From Eubacteriales bacterium (GTDB taxonomy: Bacteria > Bacillota > Clostridia > Oscillospirales > CAG-272): a stretch of 57,272 bases of DNA. Below, piece by piece: positions 3,671-11,358 of the stretch. How positions within the stretch are numbered: position 1 is the stretch's first letter; every line of letters starts with the position of its first letter. The translations under genes were made by a program, and so were the position numbers. The stretch lies in contig JAZOSH010000025.1 of assembly GCA_045656985.1 (NCBI GenBank), forward strand, positions 1-57,272, read 5' to 3'. The notes under the pieces are model-generated. The model did not search any database. It was not told where the DNA came from and saw nothing but the letters and a program-made list of their open reading frames with translations.

Positions 3671-4951
3671 ATGAATTCTTCTCAACTCATAACTTATATA
3701 AATGGCGGTGGGCTTGACGCACGCCTGCTTTCGCTTTACGGCGCCGATGCTCTCGGTGCTCAAAAAGCAAGATATATAGCGGCCATTGAGAACTTCACAG
3801 CTCTTTACGGCGAGCGTGAGGTGTCACTTTTCTCGGTTCCCGGCAGAAGCGAGCTCTCGGGCAATCATACAGACCACAATCTCGGTCGCGTTATCGCCGC
3901 TTCGGTAGACCTTGATATGATAACTGTGGCTTCCCCCACCGACGACGGGGTAGTCCGCCTTACGAGCGAGGGCTTTGGCGAGGAAATCGTTGACCTTGCA
4001 GAGTATATATCCCCCGACCTTGCCCTTGCGGGAAGCTCGGCTTCTCTCATCGCGGGCGTTTGCGCCGCATTCCGCGAGAGAGCGCTTGCAGTGGGCGGTT
4101 TTGTGGCTTACACAACATCGCGCGTGCTCGGTGGCTCGGGACTTTCGTCCTCGGCGGCATTTGAAAATATGATAGGAACTGTTGAAAACCACCTTTACAA
4201 CGGCGGCAGAGTCGACAGCGTTGAGATAGCAAAAATATCACAATACGCCGAAAATGTATTTTTCTTCAAGCCTTGCGGACTTATGGATCAGGTGGCGTGC
4301 GCCTATGGCGGTATAGTTACCATTGATTTTGCCAACAAAAAGGCTCCCGTTATTGAAAAGATAGACTTTAATCCCACCGAGCAGGGCTTCTCGCTCTGTA
4401 TCGTTGCGACAGGCGGAAATCACGCCGACCTTACCGACGATTATGCCTCTGTGCCCGCCGAGATGAAGGCGGTTGCGGCGGCTCTTGGCAAGGAGGTTCT
4501 TCGCCAGACCGACAGAGACGCACTTGTTGCCGCGCTCCCTTCCCTTCGCGAGAGCCTTGGCGACCGCGCAATTCTCCGCGCTCTGCATTTCTTTGCCGAA
4601 AACGAACGCGTAGAGGCGCAGGTAAATGCCCTCAAGGCGCGCTGTGTTGACAAATTTTTTGAAAATGTTATCGCATCGGGACGCTCCTCCTTCTGCTATC
4701 TGCAGAATATTTATACCACCAAAAATGTTGCCGAGCAGGGACTTTCGCTTGCCCTCTGCCTTGCAGAGAGCGTGCTCTCCTCGCGCGGCGGTGCGTGGCG
4801 CGTTCACGGCGGCGGCTTTGCGGGCACTATTCAGGCCTTCGTGCCCGATGAGTGTCTTGATGACTTCCGTACAGTGATGGAGTCCACATTTGGCGAGGGT
4901 TCTTGCATCACCTTAAAAATCCGCCCCGACGGCGCGATAAAGGTGATATGA
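3671..4951 (+). CDS. Galactokinase-family (GHMP) sugar kinase
   Basis: PGRSELSGNHTDHN, GSGLSSSAA ATP-binding loop, KPCGLMDQ, RVHGGGFAG. Confidence 0.9.
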   Translation: MNSSQLITYINGGGLDARLLSLYGADALGAQKARYIAAIENFTALYGEREVSLFSVPGRSELSGNHTDHNLGRVIAASVDLDMITVASPTDDGVVRLTSEGFGEEIVDLAEYISPDLALAGSSASLIAGVCAAFRERALAVGGFVAYTTSRVLGGSGLSSSAAFENMIGTVENHLYNGGRVDSVEIAKISQYAENVFFFKPCGLMDQVACAYGGIVTIDFANKKAPVIEKIDFNPTEQGFSLCIVATGGNHADLTDDYASVPAEMKAVAAALGKEVLRQTDRDALVAALPSLRESLGDRAILRALHFFAENERVEAQVNALKARCVDKFFENVIASGRSSFCYLQNIYTTKNVAEQGLSLALCLAESVLSSRGGAWRVHGGGFAGTIQAFVPDECLDDFRTVMESTFGEGSCITLKIRPDGAIKVI

Positions 4952-5730
4952 GAATTGTAACATTATACTCAGGGTCGGGCGGAAACGCGACTTACATAGA
5001 GGCGGCGGGGGTAAAGCTACTCATCGACGCGGGCAAATGTGCGCGTGCGCTTTGTACCTCGCTGACAAAAATAGGCGTCTCGATCGACGAAATAGACGCC
5101 ATATTTATAACACACGAGCACGGCGACCACATAGCCGCGCTTGAGGTGCTTTCAAAGAAGCACAAGCTGCCGATACACATTACAGAAAAGAGTGCCGAGA
5201 GATTTTACGGCGAGCGTTATTCTGCGCTTTTAGAGTGTATCGTGCCCCACTCGCCCGTGTTTTCTGTAGAAATCGGAGGTGTTTGTGTCCACTCCTTCCC
5301 CACTCCGCACGACAGCCGAATGAGTGTTGGCTATCGTATCTGCTTTGAGGAGAACGGAGAGCACGCGCTCGGTCTTGCCACCGATATAGGCTATGTGACC
5401 GATGCAATTAGAGAAGGTCTTTCGGGGTGTGAAGCGGTTGTGCTTGAGTCAAATCATGACATTGATATGCTTAAGAGCGGCCCATATCCATATGACCTTA
5501 AGCAAAGAATACTTTCGCGCAGAGGGCATCTTTCAAATGCTGAAAGTGCGCTTTTTGCCGCAGAGCTTGCTGCCACGGGAACAAAGTCCTTCATTCTGGC
5601 GCACTTGAGTGCCGAGAACAATGAGCCTGCTTTGGCTCTTGACGAATTCCTCTCTGCGACCTCTGATCTGTCTGTTCGCGTTGCGATAGCGCACCCCGAC
5701 GAGCCTACTGAAATGATTTTTGGGAGATAA
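4948..5730 (+). CDS. MBL-fold metallo-hydrolase (YycJ/WalJ-like)
   Basis: LYSGSGGN, THEHGDH, TPHDS, ATDIG, LESNHD, GHLSN, LAHLS; ATGA overlap with the upstream gene. Confidence 0.9.
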   Translation: MRIVTLYSGSGGNATYIEAAGVKLLIDAGKCARALCTSLTKIGVSIDEIDAIFITHEHGDHIAALEVLSKKHKLPIHITEKSAERFYGERYSALLECIVPHSPVFSVEIGGVCVHSFPTPHDSRMSVGYRICFEENGEHALGLATDIGYVTDAIREGLSGCEAVVLESNHDIDMLKSGPYPYDLKQRILSRRGHLSNAESALFAAELAATGTKSFILAHLSAENNEPALALDEFLSATSDLSVRVAIAHPDEPTEMIFGR

Positions 5731-5733
5731 AAA

Positions 5734-6213
5734 ATGCTGAATGTTAAGCTTATCTGCACAGGAAGCCTCAAGGAGAGCTATCTGCGCGAGGCATTTGCCG
5801 AATACGCAAAGCGCCTTGGCGGTGTTTGCCGCTTTGAGCTGCTTGAACTAAAGGAGCACAAGCTGTCCGACGCCCCTTCGGACGCCGAGATCGCGACCGC
5901 TCTTGACGAGGAGGCAAAAAAGATACTTGCCGCAATACCTCCGCGTGCCTTCAAAATAGCCCTTTGTATTGAGGGAAAGCAGTATTCCTCGGAGGAGTTT
6001 GCCAAAATTCTTGACGGTGCCACAGCGACGCATAGCGATATCTGCTTTGTCATAGGAAGCTCATACGGACTTGCCGAGAGCGTGAAGCGGGCGGCAGATC
6101 TGCGCCTGTCTTTTTCAAAAATGACCTTTCCGCATCAGCTTATGCGAGTCATCTGCGCCGAAGCCCTCTACCGCGCCTTTAATATCATAAAGGGCACGAA
6201 GTACCATAAATAA
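5734..6213 (+). CDS. rlmH: 23S rRNA (pseudouridine1915-N3)-methyltransferase
   Basis: FVIGSSYGL, LSFSKMTFPHQLMRV, YRAFNI..G.KYHK SPOUT motifs. Confidence 0.95.
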   Translation: MLNVKLICTGSLKESYLREAFAEYAKRLGGVCRFELLELKEHKLSDAPSDAEIATALDEEAKKILAAIPPRAFKIALCIEGKQYSSEEFAKILDGATATHSDICFVIGSSYGLAESVKRAADLRLSFSKMTFPHQLMRVICAEALYRAFNIIKGTKYHK

Positions 6214-6251
6214 CAAACTTTCCCTTCCATTTATGTAAAACAAGGTGAAAA

Positions 6252-7196
6252 ATGAAAAAAATAACAGCGATATTACTTGTCCTTCTGCTTTGCGTGCTTC
6301 CGCTGGTCTCGTGTGAGGGCGCAGCAGATGACGGAAAAATAAAAATAGTTTGCTCTATCTTCCCTGTCTACGATTGGGTAAGATGCATTGTGGGTGACGC
6401 CGATGGTGTTGAGGTCAGCCTTCTTGTATCTGACGGAAGCGATCCGCACAGCTACAACGCAGGCGTTGCCGACATTGTGGCGATCTCCTCGTGCGATCTG
6501 CTTGTAACGGTGGGTGGCGACTCTGATGCGTGGATAAATGCCGCGCTCCGCGATGTGCAGAATAAGGAGCTCTCTGTGCTTCGTCTGCTTGATATTCTTG
6601 ACGAACGCGAGCTTGCCTATACCGCCGACAGCGAGCACGAGCACTCTCACACCGAGGGAGAGGACTGCCACCACACACTTGACGAGCATATCTGGCTCTC
6701 ACCAAAGGCGGCGCTTCTCCTCTGCGAGAGCATCTATGAAGCACTCCTTGCACTTGATGCATCAAATGCCGATATATACGGAAAGAATTTTGACGCCTAC
6801 CGTGCCGAGCTTTCCTCACTTGATGCGCTCTACACCGAGCGCGCCGAGACGGCGGACAAGCCCTTCATTTTTGCCGACCGCTTCCCCTTCAAGTACCTGT
6901 TTTGCGACTACTCACTTGACTATATCGCGGCGTTTTCGTCCTGCTCTGCCGATAGCGAGGCAAGCTTTTCGACGGTCATCTCACTTGCAAACGAGATAGG
7001 CGCAAATGGACTTGACAGAATTTTTGTGACCGAGAGTGCGATAGACGGCATTGCTGAGTCTGTTATCTCGGCTTCGGGTCGGGTGTGCGAGATAGTCGCT
7101 ATTGACTCACTGCAGTCGGTCACAGCACGCGAGGCAGAGGACGGCGCATCATATGTTGAAATCATGAAGCAAAACGCAGAGCTGTTATTTGAATAG
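6252..7196 (+). CDS. Zn/Mn ABC transporter substrate-binding lipoprotein (ZnuA/AdcA family)
   Basis: Lipobox LVSC, DPHSY, His-rich loop EHEHSHTEGEDCHH, DEHIWLSP. Confidence 0.9.
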   Translation: MKKITAILLVLLLCVLPLVSCEGAADDGKIKIVCSIFPVYDWVRCIVGDADGVEVSLLVSDGSDPHSYNAGVADIVAISSCDLLVTVGGDSDAWINAALRDVQNKELSVLRLLDILDERELAYTADSEHEHSHTEGEDCHHTLDEHIWLSPKAALLLCESIYEALLALDASNADIYGKNFDAYRAELSSLDALYTERAETADKPFIFADRFPFKYLFCDYSLDYIAAFSSCSADSEASFSTVISLANEIGANGLDRIFVTESAIDGIAESVISASGRVCEIVAIDSLQSVTAREAEDGASYVEIMKQNAELLFE

Positions 7197-7204
7197 GAGC
7201 TACT

Positions 7205-7936
7205 ATGATAAAAATAGAATGTAAAAATGTTGCCCTTGGCTATGAGGGACAAACAGTGACCGAGAACTTGAGCTTCACGGTGACAAGCGGAGACTACCTC
7301 TGCATCGTGGGCGAGAACGGCTCGGGAAAAACAACACTTATGAAGGCTCTTTTACAGAGCATTACTCCCATCTCGGGAGAGATATGCTTTGAGGGGCTCT
7401 CGCGCGGTGAGGTGGGCTATCTTCCCCAGATCTCTCCCGCACAGAATGACTTCCCCGCAAGTGTCCGCGAGGTGGTGCTCTCGGGCTGTCTTTCGGGAAT
7501 GGGGCGCTGCCCCTTTTATTCGGCGCGCGAAAAGGCAAGAGCCAACGAAAATATGGAAAAGCTTGGCATACTTTCTCTTGCGAAGAAGCCCTACCGCGAG
7601 CTTTCGGGCGGTCAGAAGCAGAGAGTTCTGCTTGCCCGCGCGCTCTGTCAGGCACGCAAGCTCTTGCTTCTTGACGAGCCCACAGCAAGTCTTGACCCAC
7701 AGATATCCGCCGATTTCTACTCAATAGTTGAAAAGCTCAACCGCGAGGAGAACATAACCGTTATAATGATATCGCATGATATTCATTCGGCAATGAAATA
7801 TGCGTCACATATTCTGCATGTCGGCAAAACCCCGCTCTTCTTTGGCAAGACGCACGATTACATTCACAGCGGTATCTCGGGCTGCTTCTGCTGCCACGAG
7901 GAGCACGACCACGAGCACGGGGAGGACGAAAAATGA
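7205..7936 (+). CDS. Zn/Mn ABC transporter ATP-binding protein
   Basis: GENGSGKT, LSGGQKQR, LLLDEP; His/Cys-rich tail CFCCHEEHDHEH. Confidence 0.92.
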   Translation: MIKIECKNVALGYEGQTVTENLSFTVTSGDYLCIVGENGSGKTTLMKALLQSITPISGEICFEGLSRGEVGYLPQISPAQNDFPASVREVVLSGCLSGMGRCPFYSAREKARANENMEKLGILSLAKKPYRELSGGQKQRVLLARALCQARKLLLLDEPTASLDPQISADFYSIVEKLNREENITVIMISHDIHSAMKYASHILHVGKTPLFFGKTHDYIHSGISGCFCCHEEHDHEHGEDEK

Positions 7937-8775
7937 GCGAAATGATGATAAAGCTTTACGAATATTTCTCCTATCCCTTCGTGAGAAACGCAATGATAGT
8001 TGGCGTGCTGATAGCGCTCTGCGCCTCGCTTTTTGGCGTAATTCTTGTACTAAAGCGCTTCTCCTTTATCGGTGACGGACTTTCTCATGTCGCCTTTGGA
8101 GCTATGGCGGTGGCTACTGTGCTTGGCATCACCAACGGCGTTGCAGTAGTGCTTCCTGTAACCGTTATATCTGCGATACTTATTCTCAAGGCGGGCGAGA
8201 AGCGCCGTCTTGGCGGTGATGCGGCAATAGCACTTATATCGGTGTCCTCTCTTGCACTTGGATACCTTCTTATGAACATTTTCTCAGCTTCGCCAAATGT
8301 CAGCGGCGATGTCTGCTCTACACTTTTTGGTTCAACCACCATTCTCACCCTCACAAGCCTTGATGTATGGCTTTGTGTTCTGCTTTCGGTGGCGGTGCTT
8401 GCGGCATTTGTGCTGCTTTATAACAAGATATTTGCCGTTACCTTTGATGAGAGCTTTGCAGCGGCAGGCGGACTTCACCCCGAGCTATTCAATCTCGTTA
8501 TTGCAGTGGTGGTCGCCGTTATCATCGTGCTTGCTATGAATCTTGTCGGCTCTCTGCTCATCTCGGCACTCGTTATATTCCCTGCACTTACCGCAATGCG
8601 ACTTTTCAAGAGCTTCCGCGCAGTTATGCTCTGCTCGGCAGTGGTTGCCCTTTTCTCATCGGCAATCGGAATTCTCGTGGCGATCCTTGCCTCTACTCCC
8701 GTCGGTGCGACGATAGTTGGCGTACAGATAGCGGTGTTTGTTCTCTTTTCATTTATAGGAATGTGCAAAAAATAA
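7933..8775 (+). CDS. Zn/Mn ABC transporter permease (ZnuB family)
   Basis: SFIGDGLSHVAF, VGSLLISAL..FP; polytopic membrane protein. Confidence 0.92.
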   Translation: MSEMMIKLYEYFSYPFVRNAMIVGVLIALCASLFGVILVLKRFSFIGDGLSHVAFGAMAVATVLGITNGVAVVLPVTVISAILILKAGEKRRLGGDAAIALISVSSLALGYLLMNIFSASPNVSGDVCSTLFGSTTILTLTSLDVWLCVLLSVAVLAAFVLLYNKIFAVTFDESFAAAGGLHPELFNLVIAVVVAVIIVLAMNLVGSLLISALVIFPALTAMRLFKSFRAVMLCSAVVALFSSAIGILVAILASTPVGATIVGVQIAVFVLFSFIGMCKK

Positions 8776-8849
8776 AGAGAGGAGCCCTGATGCTGTGCAC
8801 TCTTAAGGACAGTTTTCTAAATTGAATAAAATATATTACCTACCGACAG

Positions 8850-8890
8850 AAAAAAGGACAGAAACTATTTTATGTTTTCTGTCCTTTTTT
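8850..8890. terminator. Bidirectional terminator inside the insertion
   Basis: aaaaaaggacagaaa-loop-tttctgtccttttttt-type hairpin just downstream of the small minus-strand ORF. Confidence 0.7.
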
Positions 8891-8899
8891 ATACGATTA

Positions 8900-9100
8900 T
8901 CAAATATAAACTTTACTCACAACAATGTTTTCTTCTTTGTTTTTTGTATCAAATTCAGGGAAACAAAGCAAATAGTAGTCGCACTCGTCACAACAACATT
9001 CAAAGCCTTCTTCTCCGTTACCAAGACAAACCATAGGCTCTCCGGGCGCAAGTTCTACGCCGGTAATATCTATTACCCTTTTTTGAGTATTCTTGCTCAT
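8900..9100 (-). CDS. Small acidic Cys-rich hypothetical protein (66 aa)
   Basis: ATG at 9100 after a GGGGG RBS; MSKNTQKRVIDITGVELAPGEPMVCLGNGEEGFECCCDECDYYLLCF...; 6 Cys. Confidence 0.7.
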   Translation of the reverse strand: MSKNTQKRVIDITGVELAPGEPMVCLGNGEEGFECCCDECDYYLLCFPEFDTKNKEENIVVSKVYI

Positions 9101-9119
9101 ATATCCCCCATCTGCATAT

Positions 9120-9329
9120 AAAAAAGGTGCGTAACCGAAGCCACGCACCGAAAACCGCAAACTCCGATTGCTGCTACACAAACTAAATTAGAATTAGGGC
9201 ATTTACCATAACCATTTAGTAGAGCTTGCGATTTTACCAAGTTCAAAAATAGTTATGGCAAAAAAAGGGTATAAATATGCCTATAAAGACAAAAATACCA
9301 CCAATTCTAATATTCAGTTTGTGTAGCAT
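9120..9329 (-). ncRNA. Candidate structured ncRNA or attenuator leader (about 205 nt)
   Basis: Promoter TTGATT (9362-9357)-17-TGnTATAAT (9339-9334). A long stem starts at the predicted 5' end (9327 pairs with 9173), an inner hairpin follows, then a C(UUCG)G terminator with a U6 tract (9149-9120). Confidence 0.6.
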
Positions 9330-9564
9330 ACTTATTATATCACATGCTTTGATAAAAATCAAGCAACTTTAAAGAAAACCTTAAACTTAAAACGCACCTT
9401 ACGGAAGAGCAAGAATTATATCATCATTTATCCTGATAAGCACAGCATCTGTGGACACAAATCAAAAATACGGCACCCCTCTTTCGAGATATACCATATC
9501 TTGCAAAACTGTCCTTTAGAGGAGCCCTTATGGGCTTCTCTTTTTTGCCGATGGCGCGTTATCC

Positions 9565-9593
9565 TTGACTTTGAGGCGCGTATATGGTATAAT
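9565..9593 (+). promoter_or_regulatory. Sigma-A promoter of the ymdB-mrnC-cyclophilin genes
   Basis: TTGACT-17-TGG-TATAAT. Confidence 0.75.
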
Positions 9594-9645
9594 CTTCTTG
9601 CGGAGCTGCCGACCGCAAGAATTTTTTGGCAATAGAAAGAAAAAA

Positions 9646-10434
9646 ATGAAGATACTTATAATTGGCGACATCGTTGGCACAAAAAGCGTTGATTTTCTCG
9701 GTGAGAAGCTCTGGCGTGTGAGAGACTCGCTCTCTGCCGATTTTGTTGTGGCAAACGGAGAGAATGCCTCCGACATTCATGGCATCAGCGCACCCTTGGC
9801 GCGCGATATTCTTGCCGCGGGTGTTGACCTTATCACCCTTGGCAACCACACCTATGGCAGACGCGACATCTGCGCTCTTCTTTCCGACGAGGAAAGGATA
9901 ATCCGACCTGCAAATTACCCCGCGACCTGCCCGGGCGGCGGCTATTCTATCATCAATATTGACGGCTACAGGATACTCTGTATGAATGTGCTTGGCACCG
10001 CTTTTATGGAGCCGCTTGCCTGCCCCTTTGAGACGGTGGACAGGATACTTGCGCGCGAAGCGGGAGAGTATGACTTATCTCTGCTTGATATTCACGCCGA
10101 GGCAACGAGCGAAAAGCTGGCGCTGGCGCGCTATTTTGACGGAAGGATAAATATTATTTTTGGCACTCACACCCACATTCCCACCGCCGACGAGCAGATA
10201 CTGCCCCGTGGCACGGCATACATCACCGATGTGGGCATGACAGGCCCGATTGACGGCATTCTCGGCACAGATGCAGACGCGGTAATTGAAAAGTTCCGTA
10301 CCCGAATGCCCACCCGATTTACTGTGGCATCAGGAAAAATACGCGCAAACTGTCTCTTTGTTGACATTGATGCCGAAAGTGGCAGGGTAGCATCTGTCAA
10401 GCGAGTAAATTTTGAAGAAGAGGCTAAAATATGA
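9646..10434 (+). CDS. ymdB: YmdB/TIGR00282-family metallophosphoesterase
   Basis: MKILIIGDIVG, ANGENA, ITLGNH, RPANYP, DIHAEATSEK, GTHTH, YITDVGMTG. Confidence 0.92.
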   Translation: MKILIIGDIVGTKSVDFLGEKLWRVRDSLSADFVVANGENASDIHGISAPLARDILAAGVDLITLGNHTYGRRDICALLSDEERIIRPANYPATCPGGGYSIINIDGYRILCMNVLGTAFMEPLACPFETVDRILAREAGEYDLSLLDIHAEATSEKLALARYFDGRINIIFGTHTHIPTADEQILPRGTAYITDVGMTGPIDGILGTDADAVIEKFRTRMPTRFTVASGKIRANCLFVDIDAESGRVASVKRVNFEEEAKI

Positions 10435-10826
10435 GTATAGATATTAAAACTGTTTCTACCTCTGCGCTCGCCTACCTTGGCGACAGCGTTATTGAGCTTT
10501 GCGTACGCGAGCTTCTCGTTTCGCGTGGACTTTCGTCATCGGCTCACCTTAATGCGAAGGCGCTCGCCTTTGTGCGCGCGACAGCACAGGCGGAAGCGGT
10601 GAAAAAAATACTCCCCCTCTTGAACGAGGAGGAGGAGGCTGCCTTCAGGCGCGGAAGAAACATAGGACACACAAATACTCCAAAGTCTGCCACCGTTGCC
10701 GAATACAGAATGGCAACAGGTATGGAGGCACTCTTTGGCTGGCTATACCTTGCGGGCAGACAGCAGAGGATTCGCGAGCTTTTCGATGCGGCATATGACG
10801 CCGATGAGCTTCTCCCTACCAAATAA
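10431..10826 (+). CDS. mrnC: Mini-ribonuclease III
   Basis: ALAYLGDSV, EEEAAFRRGRN, EYRMATGMEALFGWLYL. Confidence 0.92.
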   Translation: MSIDIKTVSTSALAYLGDSVIELCVRELLVSRGLSSSAHLNAKALAFVRATAQAEAVKKILPLLNEEEEAAFRRGRNIGHTNTPKSATVAEYRMATGMEALFGWLYLAGRQQRIRELFDAAYDADELLPTK

Positions 10827-10854
10827 GAGAATAATTTTGAAAGGAAATATAAAA

Positions 10855-11358
10855 ATGGCAAATCCTATTATTAAAATCAAGGTCAAAAATTTTGGAACTA
10901 TGACCGCAGAGCTTTACCCCGACAAGGCTCCTGTCACCGTTGAGAATTTTCTCAAGCTTGCAAGAGCTGATTTCTTTGCAGGCCTTATCTTCCACCGCGT
11001 TATCAAGACATTTATGATTCAGGGCGGCGGATACGATGAGTCAATGACCGACAAAGATGCCCCCTCTATCAAGGGAGAGTTTGCCGCAAACGGCTTTATG
11101 AAGAACGACATCAAGCACACACGCGGCGTACTTTCTATGGCGCGCACAAGTGACCCTAACTCGGCTTCCTCGCAGTTCTTTGTAATGCATATGGATGCTC
11201 CCCACCTTGACAAGCAGTATGCCGCTTTCGGCAAGCTTACCGACGGATTTGATGTGCTTGATGCCATCGCATCGGTAAAAACAGGTAACTACGGCTGGTA
11301 CATGCAGGATGTTCCGCGCGAGCCCGTTGTAATTGAAACAATTGAAGTTGTTGAATAA
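10855..11358 (+). CDS. Cyclophilin-type peptidyl-prolyl cis-trans isomerase
   Basis: FHRVIKTFMIQGG, SMART..PNSASSQFF, HLDKQYAAFGK. Confidence 0.95.
   Translation: MANPIIKIKVKNFGTMTAELYPDKAPVTVENFLKLARADFFAGLIFHRVIKTFMIQGGGYDESMTDKDAPSIKGEFAANGFMKNDIKHTRGVLSMARTSDPNSASSQFFVMHMDAPHLDKQYAAFGKLTDGFDVLDAIASVKTGNYGWYMQDVPREPVVIETIEVVE

Follow-up and report, generated by a model that had tools for sequence, protein, structure and literature searches.

The clostridial mobilizable or conjugative transposons Tn4451/Tn4453 and Tn5397 are moved by the large serine recombinases (LSRs) TnpX and TndX, respectively, which belong to the DUF4368 clade (Durrant et al. 2022, PMC10083194). DUF4368 has been described as the mark of a multi-targeting LSR clade that includes TndX, and for one multi-targeting LSR, a core of TT between A/T-rich flanks has been reported (PMC10083194); enzymes of this kind have also been associated with mobilizable elements (bioRxiv 10.1101/2024.01.18.576133). 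Here, we report on a 740-bp stretch adjoining the znuB stop codon in an Eubacteriales bacterium (Oscillospirales, CAG-272; assembly GCA_045656985.1), located on contig JAZOSH010000025.1, whose positions 1 to 57,272 were analyzed as a whole and are called the window. Uncultured gut Clostridia contain a large family of small gene cassettes to which this stretch belongs as one copy, and the interval 8792–9529 is likely to represent a non-autonomous member of a family of integrative elements of the serine-recombinase type, consisting of a cargo cassette placed inside a terminator hairpin. The features at its two ends are as follows.

8766–8787, plus strand: left half of the split host terminator, consisting of an A-tract and the stem AGAGGAGCCC (8778–8787), which pairs with 9532–9541; it overlaps the znuB stop codon (8773–8775) and would represent the left arm of attB.
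8778–8792, plus strand: first copy of a direct repeat, AGAGGAGCCCTGATG, which includes the left terminator arm and loop nucleotides and extends one base into the element arm; unique among 32 elements.
8790–8791, no strand: AT, putative 2-bp crossover remnant at the left junction, assigned from the family pattern and located 13 rather than 14 nt from the core.
8792–8816, plus strand: putative left-end recombinase half-site, composed of the 13-nt arm GCTGTGCACTCTT and the core AAGGACAGTTTT (8805–8816), fitting the family consensus tGgnnCGTACTCTT-AAGGACAGTTTT.
9505–9529, minus strand: putative right-end recombinase half-site, composed of the core AAGGACAGTTTT (9505–9516, minus strand) and a degenerate 13-nt arm (9517–9529).
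9530–9531, no strand: AT, putative 2-bp crossover remnant at the right junction, its position here assigned from the family pattern.
9518–9546, plus strand: complete terminator hairpin AGAGGAGCCC-TTAT-GGGCTTCTCT with T6 and a folding energy of −18 kcal/mol; its 3′ arm and T-run (9532–9546) represent the right arm of the host attB, its 5′ arm (9518–9527) the second direct-repeat copy, overlapping the right arm of the element.

An initial annotation of the window had proposed a mobile cassette with attachment-like ends at this position, and all of its sequence observations were reproduced. The 15-nt direct repeat is identical in 14 of 15 positions (AGAGGAGCCCTGATG at 8778–8792, AGAGGAGCCCTTATG at 9518–9532), and joining the flanks in silico restores a terminator of −21.7 kcal/mol directly 3′ of the znuB stop codon. 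Also present are the inverted ends (CTCTTAAGGACAGTTTT at 8800–8816 and AAAACTGTCCTTTAGAG at 9505–9521, matching in 16 of 17 positions), the four copies of AAGGACAG (at 8805 and 8854 on the plus strand, at 8879–8886 and 9509–9516 on the minus strand), and a 10-nt inverted match between 8789–8798 and 9440–9449. This last match coincides with a conserved interior motif of the right end (AAATGCAGTGCTTGTCA in the consensus), which loosely resembles the left arm. The proposal of a 60-bp site centered on an AT dinucleotide turned out to be roughly right, as AT is found at both junctions, except that it lies 13 nt from the core as compared to 14 nt in the family. The two imperfect inverted half-sites of ~25 bp would form an attP site if the element were circularized. 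As initially stated, the cassette carries no recombinase gene, its sole credible open reading frame (ORF) encoding 66 amino acids without a Pfam or NCBIfam match, and its cargo indeed consists of a non-coding RNA, here a leader supported by covariation, together with this Cys-rich ORF.

In the 1.8-Mb genome, four exact matches to the 12-mer AAGGACAGTTTT are found, as compared to ~0.2 expected by chance, and all four represent the ends of two elements, namely the window cassette and a second copy of 1654 bp on another contig (C22:1928–3581). The C22 copy carries a different cargo, encoding two zinc-ribbon proteins, and shares 86% identity with the window copy in the right end and 80% in a 225-nt non-coding stretch. 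It is canonical, with TT/AA at its junctions and a restored hairpin of AATAAAAAAGCAGATGC-TTTC-GCATCTGCTTTTTTATT.

A view on related genomes shows how far the family is spread. The 24 genomes of the same genus each contain dozens of matches to the left end, the small ORF, the leader, and the right end, treated as four modules, with many of these matches located at contig ends, and an exact-pattern scan of species-representative genomes yielded at least 120 stretches. All of those listed come from metagenome-assembled genomes of uncultured Oscillospiraceae, Clostridia or Eubacteriales, and many of the names point to ruminant guts. The interior modules and both ends recur at 70–94% identity in many genomes and at other sites. 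The cargo varies widely, comprising the Cys-rich miniprotein, zinc-ribbon proteins, a helix-turn-helix (HTH) regulator, NUDIX, glycerate kinase, methyltransferase, and HAD proteins, as well as a DUF559-type protein, a GntR regulator with an ABC transporter, a MATE pump, and a LacI regulator with a large glycosidase; gene-less forms of 337–470 bp also recur. One and the same cassette type is found in different terminators of different genomes: the cassette of leader and Cys-rich ORF is present in at least six different terminators, the methyltransferase and DUF559 cassettes in two or three each.

The anatomy of the ends was derived from 181 non-redundant ends and 31 complete pairs. Going inward, each end consists of an A-tract, a GC-containing stem of ~8–10 nt, 0–3 variable nucleotides, a dinucleotide, a 14-nt arm, and the core AAGGACAGTTTT. 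The stem differs between copies and is the same on both sides of each, such that all 31 pairs are flanked by a copy-specific inverted repeat of 9–24 nt (A-tract plus stem on one side, stem plus T-tract on the other), indicating that each element sits in the loop of a terminator. The initially proposed targeting of terminator hairpins is thus supported at the level of the family. The dinucleotide at positions −16/−15 from the core is TT in 110 and AT in 16 of 128 right (promoter-side) ends, and AA in 34 and AT in 10 of 53 left ends; within pairs, TT is combined with AA in 24 of 31 cases and AT with AT in five. This means that the same two bases are present at both junctions on one strand, with no longer duplication (the best direct repeat does not exceed 9 nt in the 31 pairs), a pattern that fits the 2-bp crossover of a serine recombinase. 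As judged from these sequences, the signature of the family would be a 2-bp crossover (TT or AT) between inverted half-sites of ~26 nt, and the low direct-repeat values led us to reject target duplication as the mechanism of the family. The promoter-side arm folds into a small hairpin, TTAGAG-nnGTn-CTCTAA, with covarying stem types (GGG/CCC, GAG/CTC, and GC/GC). As an observation of its own, locus L028 (G021:C11, 4260–6100) contains two tandem elements after a tRNA-Ser-like gene, with the tRNA 3′ end, A-tract, and stem (~37 nt) directly repeated ahead of each element; the first of them carries the non-hairpin arm type at both ends, and a single simple integration does not explain this locus.

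The split hairpins are, as far as can be told, ordinary terminators. In 54% of 593 terminator-like hairpins in this genome, the inverted repeat is perfect over 13 nt or more and reaches into symmetric A- and T-tracts; symmetric terminators of such length are thus common here, and the idea that the flanking inverted repeats are made by the insertion itself was rejected on these grounds. A compact terminator of the same build is found 3′ of prmA in 15 sister species, and in genome G023 the two halves of the prmA terminator are split by a gene-less element of 468 bp. On either side, the A-tract occupies a fixed position (−27 to −32), where A is found in up to 124 of 128 sequences. The distance from the center to the tract falls into the 11–13-nt class in ~73% of the elements, as compared to 35% of the terminators of the genome, although the two measures differ slightly; this tighter spacing suggests that the target is chosen by its geometry.

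The same ends also bound elements that encode a recombinase. About a quarter (~20) of the right ends listed join the 3′ end of a recombinase gene straight after the first internal hairpin, the gene product being 553–565 amino acids long and containing the domains Resolvase, Recombinase, Zn_ribbon_recom, and DUF4368; among its solved relatives, TnpX ranks best (E = 1.6e-35). Two complete recombinase elements with the same left and right half-sites were recovered, one of 16.8 kb after a tRNA-Glu gene (G048:C46) and one of 10.4 kb after a tRNA-Lys gene (G143:C12), both with TT/AA junctions and flanked by inverted repeats that match perfectly over 19 and 15 nt, respectively. The larger one codes for a ParB-like protein, a relaxase, an excisionase-type HTH protein, and large helicase-like genes. 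Its removal in silico at the position of the presumed crossover yields the hairpin ...GACACTC-CTTGC-GAGTGTC..., whose loop matches those of two paralogous hairpins (CTTGT and CTTGC) that lie uninterrupted at a distance of a few hundred bases. Apart from this, the excisionase-type HTH protein of the same element (L165, 172–16947) also matches the MADS1 defense-system model below its cut-off, and proteins of 1707, 941, and 569 amino acids look helicase- or nuclease-like, so that a defense island is possible.

A recombinase of 64% identity to the partner enzyme keeps a nearly identical arm and core, TTTAGAGTCGTACTCTA-AAGGACAGTCTT (L209, i.e., G281:C139, compared with L207 and L208), and with recombinases of 56–59% identity the ends differ and the internal hairpin is similar. 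This hints at co-evolving subfamilies of enzymes and ends. The check suggested initially, a search for other cargo and a recombinase between ends of the AAGGACAGTTTT type, gave a positive answer on both counts. Of the proposed mobilization in trans by a site-specific recombinase, the part that stands is that the family ends bound serine recombinase elements, and the action in trans is suggested by association. The other enzyme type considered at the outset, IS110/IS1111, which combines a DEDD transposase with ends that lack long terminal inverted repeats, finds no support as an affiliation of the family, given the inverted ends of ~26 nt; none of the elements examined has such a gene between its ends, although no family-wide search for DEDD genes was made.

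Since cassettes and serine recombinase elements have their ends in common, a serine recombinase of the transposon type is the most likely mover of the cassettes. From what is observed (ends in common, a location in terminator loops, the pattern of dinucleotides, and partners that bear a recombinase), the following course may be envisaged. The two half-sites, each composed of a 14-nt arm and AAGGACAGTTTT, would together form an attP-like site of ~58 bp, and the recombinase would excise the cassette as a circle carrying this site. The circle would then integrate at TT in the loop of a terminator built of A-tract, 8–10-bp stem, loop, stem, and T-tract, leading to attL as B-TT-P′ and attR as P-TT-B′, where P and P′ denote the arm-plus-core half-sites and B and B′ the halves of the hairpin whose loop had contained TT. 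The same 2-bp crossover (TT, sometimes AT) would thus appear at both junctions without duplication of the target. The autonomous members would be mobilizable elements of 10–17 kb with a TnpX-like LSR containing DUF4368 encoded at one end, and the cassettes would have retained only the two ends, with an inward-facing terminator at each, around a self-contained cargo module. The recombinase-less cassettes would be served in trans by the enzyme of the autonomous members, an excision and integration activity to which the shared ends point by association. In its widest form, this proposal states that a DUF4368 recombinase of gut Clostridia picks terminators as attB by their architecture (symmetric A- and T-tracts at a set distance, any stem, TT in the loop) and thereby runs a dispersed, integron-like economy of hundreds of insulated single-gene units and gene-less miniatures in trans, with every unit giving termination back to the genes that it interrupts and with an undescribed leader of the attenuator type in many cassettes; we give this wide form an even chance of being correct.

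Several points weigh against the assignment of the window cassette to a serine-recombinase-type family and its mobilization in trans. Neither an excision product nor a circular junction was observed. The comparison of the locus with relatives that had been suggested initially did not yield an empty allele of the window site in the collections searched, and none is recoverable there because these collections contain no conspecific sequence: exact-protein look-ups of ZnuB and YmdB hit no other contig, two metagenome scans (with the empty-site pattern and with the right flank alone) gave no match, the closest YmdB among 5.8 billion proteins is only 78% identical, the closest relatives have znuABC, ymdB, and MBL-rlmH in a different order at this junction, and cross-matching the flanks of 31 elements to all fetched loci revealed no orthologous empty site. 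Close homologues of the recombinase (at least 81% identity) are found in only three of the 24 same-genus genomes, not in the one studied here, and in six of 251 sampled genomes of the family, with the cassettes being nearly universal in the genus. The covarying small hairpin of the right arm has no assignable role in this scheme, nor does the scheme account for the acceptance of stems of unrelated sequence by one recombinase. Finally, the window copy itself departs from the family: its arms are 13 instead of 14 nt long, the dinucleotides in the correct register are GA and CA, and the 15-nt direct repeat is peculiar to it, the best direct repeat between flank and end being at most 9 nt in the 31 other paired elements.

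These oddities may be connected with the individual history of the window copy. AT is present at both of its junctions, yet one nucleotide out of register, and its right arm reads TAGAGGAGCCCTT on the plus strand as compared to the consensus TAGAGTnACnnCTCT, which is normal in the closest relative (G011). The altered bases of the right arm copy the left terminator arm, including a wobble G, and this rewriting accounts for both the 15-nt direct repeat and the intact terminator at 9518–9546. As no other element shows such a repeat, the view of the 15-nt repeat as an attachment-site signature was given up in favor of the 2-bp crossover (TT or AT) of the family; rather than being a footprint of the mechanism, the repeat probably arose by a templated change secondary to the insertion, or possibly from a target with a resemblance to the donor arm. 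The copy is probably old and probably no longer a good substrate. Its mobility is doubtful, as the right half-site is rewritten, the dinucleotide is off register, and a cognate recombinase is absent from the assembly, which is 94% complete. The only candidate found there, a fragment at C7:19–378, was rejected, since it represents the C-terminus of an unrelated large serine recombinase with 38% identity to the partner enzyme; this fragment is located at the start of its contig, and its flank lacks an end of the family type. As to the surroundings, the window cassette is located at a synteny breakpoint (4903–11358, judged against L201 and L202): the nearest relative (77% YmdB identity) has znuBCA in inverted orientation, diverging from ymdB without an element in between, and in another relative MBL-rlmH come after ymdB-miniIII-PPIase.

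Other explanations have to be weighed against a serine recombinase that moves the cassettes in trans. The cassettes might be dead remnants of large recombinase elements, formed by internal deletion and never moved again, with their spread reflecting vertical descent and decay. Such an origin would be consistent with the right end at L083, which is followed by the remnant of a recombinase gene, with a 2.2-kb element at L123 that has the left end of the large-element type, and with the decayed appearance of the window copy. It does not account for the occurrence of the same cassette types, complete with promoter, leader, and terminators, in many unrelated terminators and species, nor for the recurrence of gene-less forms of 337–470 bp; moreover, recombinase-bearing copies are far fewer than cassettes, and the large elements have genes that bear no relation to the cassette cargo. 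We therefore regard this explanation as unlikely. A DDE transposase directed to hairpins, or some other unknown enzyme, could also move the cassettes, with the serine elements merely sharing or targeting their ends. The elements IS1272 and TnSha1 of the IS1182 family are known to insert into terminator hairpins without primary-sequence specificity or target duplication (PMC4923244), and the cassette ends do resemble terminal inverted repeats. These elements employ a DDE transposase whose blunt cuts delete part of the stem, whereas both stem halves are intact here, no duplication of fixed length is found, the 2-bp core is shared, the TT/AA pattern fits a serine recombinase, and the partner is such an enzyme; no transposase gene is present between the ends in any element examined. 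Furthermore, both ends are present in the recombinase elements, together with split-hairpin flanks of the same kind, which means that these elements are not insertions into a cassette end. Taken together, these points make a DDE transposase very unlikely.

The two remaining explanations concern the repeats themselves. According to the null case named in the initial annotation, they would result from a local duplication of the terminator flanking an ordinary resident gene, as the restriction of the 15-nt direct repeat to the window copy and the missing empty site might suggest; this is contradicted by the recurrence of both ends and the interior modules at 70–94% identity in many genomes and at other sites, and we consider it highly improbable. 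Alternatively, AAGGACAGTTTT might be a promoter or operator motif of a regulator, e.g., of the AraC-like gene next to the C22 copy, which is preceded by a near-copy of the motif (CAGGACAGTTTTTCAA, C22:993), or the inverted repeats might bound an invertible switch, as was at first suggested by seemingly swapped arm types at L024. The motif lies outside of transcription units, beyond the terminators, and always as an inverted pair in a split hairpin, and at L024 each of the two ends turned out to carry the hairpin-type arm, the core being AT. Crossover dinucleotides in direct orientation, as found here, predict excision and not inversion; an inverton was rejected because of this polarity (one strand reads TT at either junction) and because the unit is a whole gene with terminators rather than a bare promoter. 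The probability of an operator or a switch is close to negligible.

The closest described systems are still Tn4451 and Tn5397, with which the partner elements share an enzyme of the same four-domain architecture with TnpX as the best solved relative, a recombinase gene at the element end, a relaxase aboard, and a 2-bp crossover without target duplication at many different target sites, whose TT core and A/T-rich surroundings agree with those reported for one multi-targeting LSR. In contrast to these transposons, the target here is the loop of a symmetric intrinsic terminator with an A-tract at a fixed distance, the ends bear replacement terminators, and recombinase-less cassettes and gene-less miniatures use the same ends in large numbers. 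A literature search found no paper on terminator-loop targeting with end-borne terminators and recombinase-less cassettes of such type. Cargo cassettes without a recombinase that lie between attachment sequences and are thought to be moved in trans are represented by the ccr-less pseudo-SCC (staphylococcal cassette chromosome) elements of staphylococci. These all enter one attB in rlmH (orfX), where they form tandem stacks, whereas the elements described here are dispersed over many terminators, and the partner LSR bears only a distant similarity to CcrA/B/C, with scores far below the family cut-offs. Mobile insertion cassettes (MICs), miniature inverted-repeat transposable elements (MITEs), and Tn3-derived inverted-repeat miniature elements (TIMEs) are likewise non-autonomous units, with or without passenger genes, which use the ends of an autonomous element. 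They are transposed by DDE enzymes and produce target duplications of fixed length; membership in a MITE or MIC group of a DDE transposon was rejected, since none of the 31 pairs shows a duplication and no transposase is found between the ends of the elements examined. Finally, the family resembles integron cassettes in its small, mostly single-gene units with very diverse cargo, a site-specific recombinase, and a hairpin-forming site. Integron cassettes depend on a tyrosine recombinase and attC, form ordered arrays at attI, and usually lack a promoter, whereas the copies described here are scattered one by one over unrelated terminators, come with a promoter and terminators of their own, and have a signature of the serine-recombinase type.

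The interior of the window cassette is organized as a cargo module between two insulating terminators, with the following features.

8850–8890, no strand: bidirectional intrinsic terminator AAAAAAGGACAGAAA...TTTCTGTCCTTTTTT, with a repeat of 15/15 and −18.5 kcal/mol, kept in the left-end module of other copies.
8900–9100, minus strand: cargo ORF for a Cys-rich protein of 66 amino acids (MSKNTQKRVIDITGVELAPGEPMVCLGNGEEGFECCCDECDYYLLCFPEFD...), with the Shine-Dalgarno sequence GGGGGA at 9104–9109.
9120–9328, minus strand: structured leader RNA, with a basal helix (9312–9328 with 9172–9188), an apical segment pairing with a linker (9221–9235 with 9151–9165), and a terminator at 9126–9149 plus U-run.
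9334–9362, minus strand: sigma-70-type promoter of leader and cargo, consisting of TTGATT (9357–9362), 14 nt, and the extended −10 element TGATATAAT (9334–9342).
9462–9504, minus strand: inward-facing terminator of the right end (hairpin 2), whose long stem is capped by a GAAA loop and leads into UUUUU on the minus strand.

The terminator at 8850–8890 is predicted to end the cargo transcript and to halt read-through from znuB. Hairpin 2 has an energy of −17.1 kcal/mol in the window as compared to −29.5 kcal/mol for the consensus, contains G·U pairs on the minus strand only, and is kept in cassettes and recombinase-bearing elements alike. Together, the end terminators would replace the host terminator that is split by the insertion. 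The promoter block TGTGATATAAT is nearly invariant across 30 homologues. A second copy of the extended −10 element TGATATAAT is located at 9415–9423 (minus strand), ~80 nt upstream of the leader promoter within the right-end module, and is kept in the closest copy (G011); it may represent a second promoter.

The leader RNA precedes varied cargo in many cassettes. Its basal helix of 15 bp shows compensatory changes in 10 pairs, its apical segment AAAAnCGCAAGCUCC pairs with the linker GGAGUUUGCGnUUUU just 5′ of the terminator (96% paired, three two-sided changes), and the observed level of covariation was reached by none of 500 shuffles. The linker may alternatively pair with the 5′ half of the terminator, suggesting that the leader might work as an attenuator. 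No Rfam match to the leader was found: a scan of 7500–11000 gave BTnc060 alone, on a different stretch and with 28.9 bits as compared to a gathering threshold of 228.9. The 66-residue protein, to which no Pfam or NCBIfam model matches, contains the conserved core IDITGxELxPGxPxVCLGNGExGFECCCDECDYxLLCFPEFD and has 890 homologous clusters (at 90% identity) in public data, all of them unnamed. Most of its relatives are encoded on contigs of very small size, which is to be expected where a repeat breaks the assembly.

In many cassettes, a second, unrelated palindromic repeat (cctcccctgtgtaaggggaggtggcacggcttgccgtgtcggaggggttg...) is nested in the section that separates the leader promoter from the right end (G000 C22:2040–2170, i.e., L002, and L007, L026, L034, L036, L037, and L144). 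Spurious ORFs over it read ...PLCKGRWHAKRDGGI..., and it looks like a separate family of miniature repeats.

Multi-targeting serine recombinases have been recognized as being of practical interest for genome engineering (PMC10083194), and the structural rule for attB and the compact attP of ~58 bp proposed here are directly testable. The cassettes further bring to light an unannotated leader RNA supported by covariation and a very widespread, unannotated Cys-rich miniprotein. If the proposed mechanism is true, it would describe a serine recombinase that is both promiscuous and harmless, landing only in terminator loops and supplying replacement terminators. The uncultured gut Clostridia would then contain a hidden layer of small cassettes mobilized in trans, which break assemblies and have remained unannotated.

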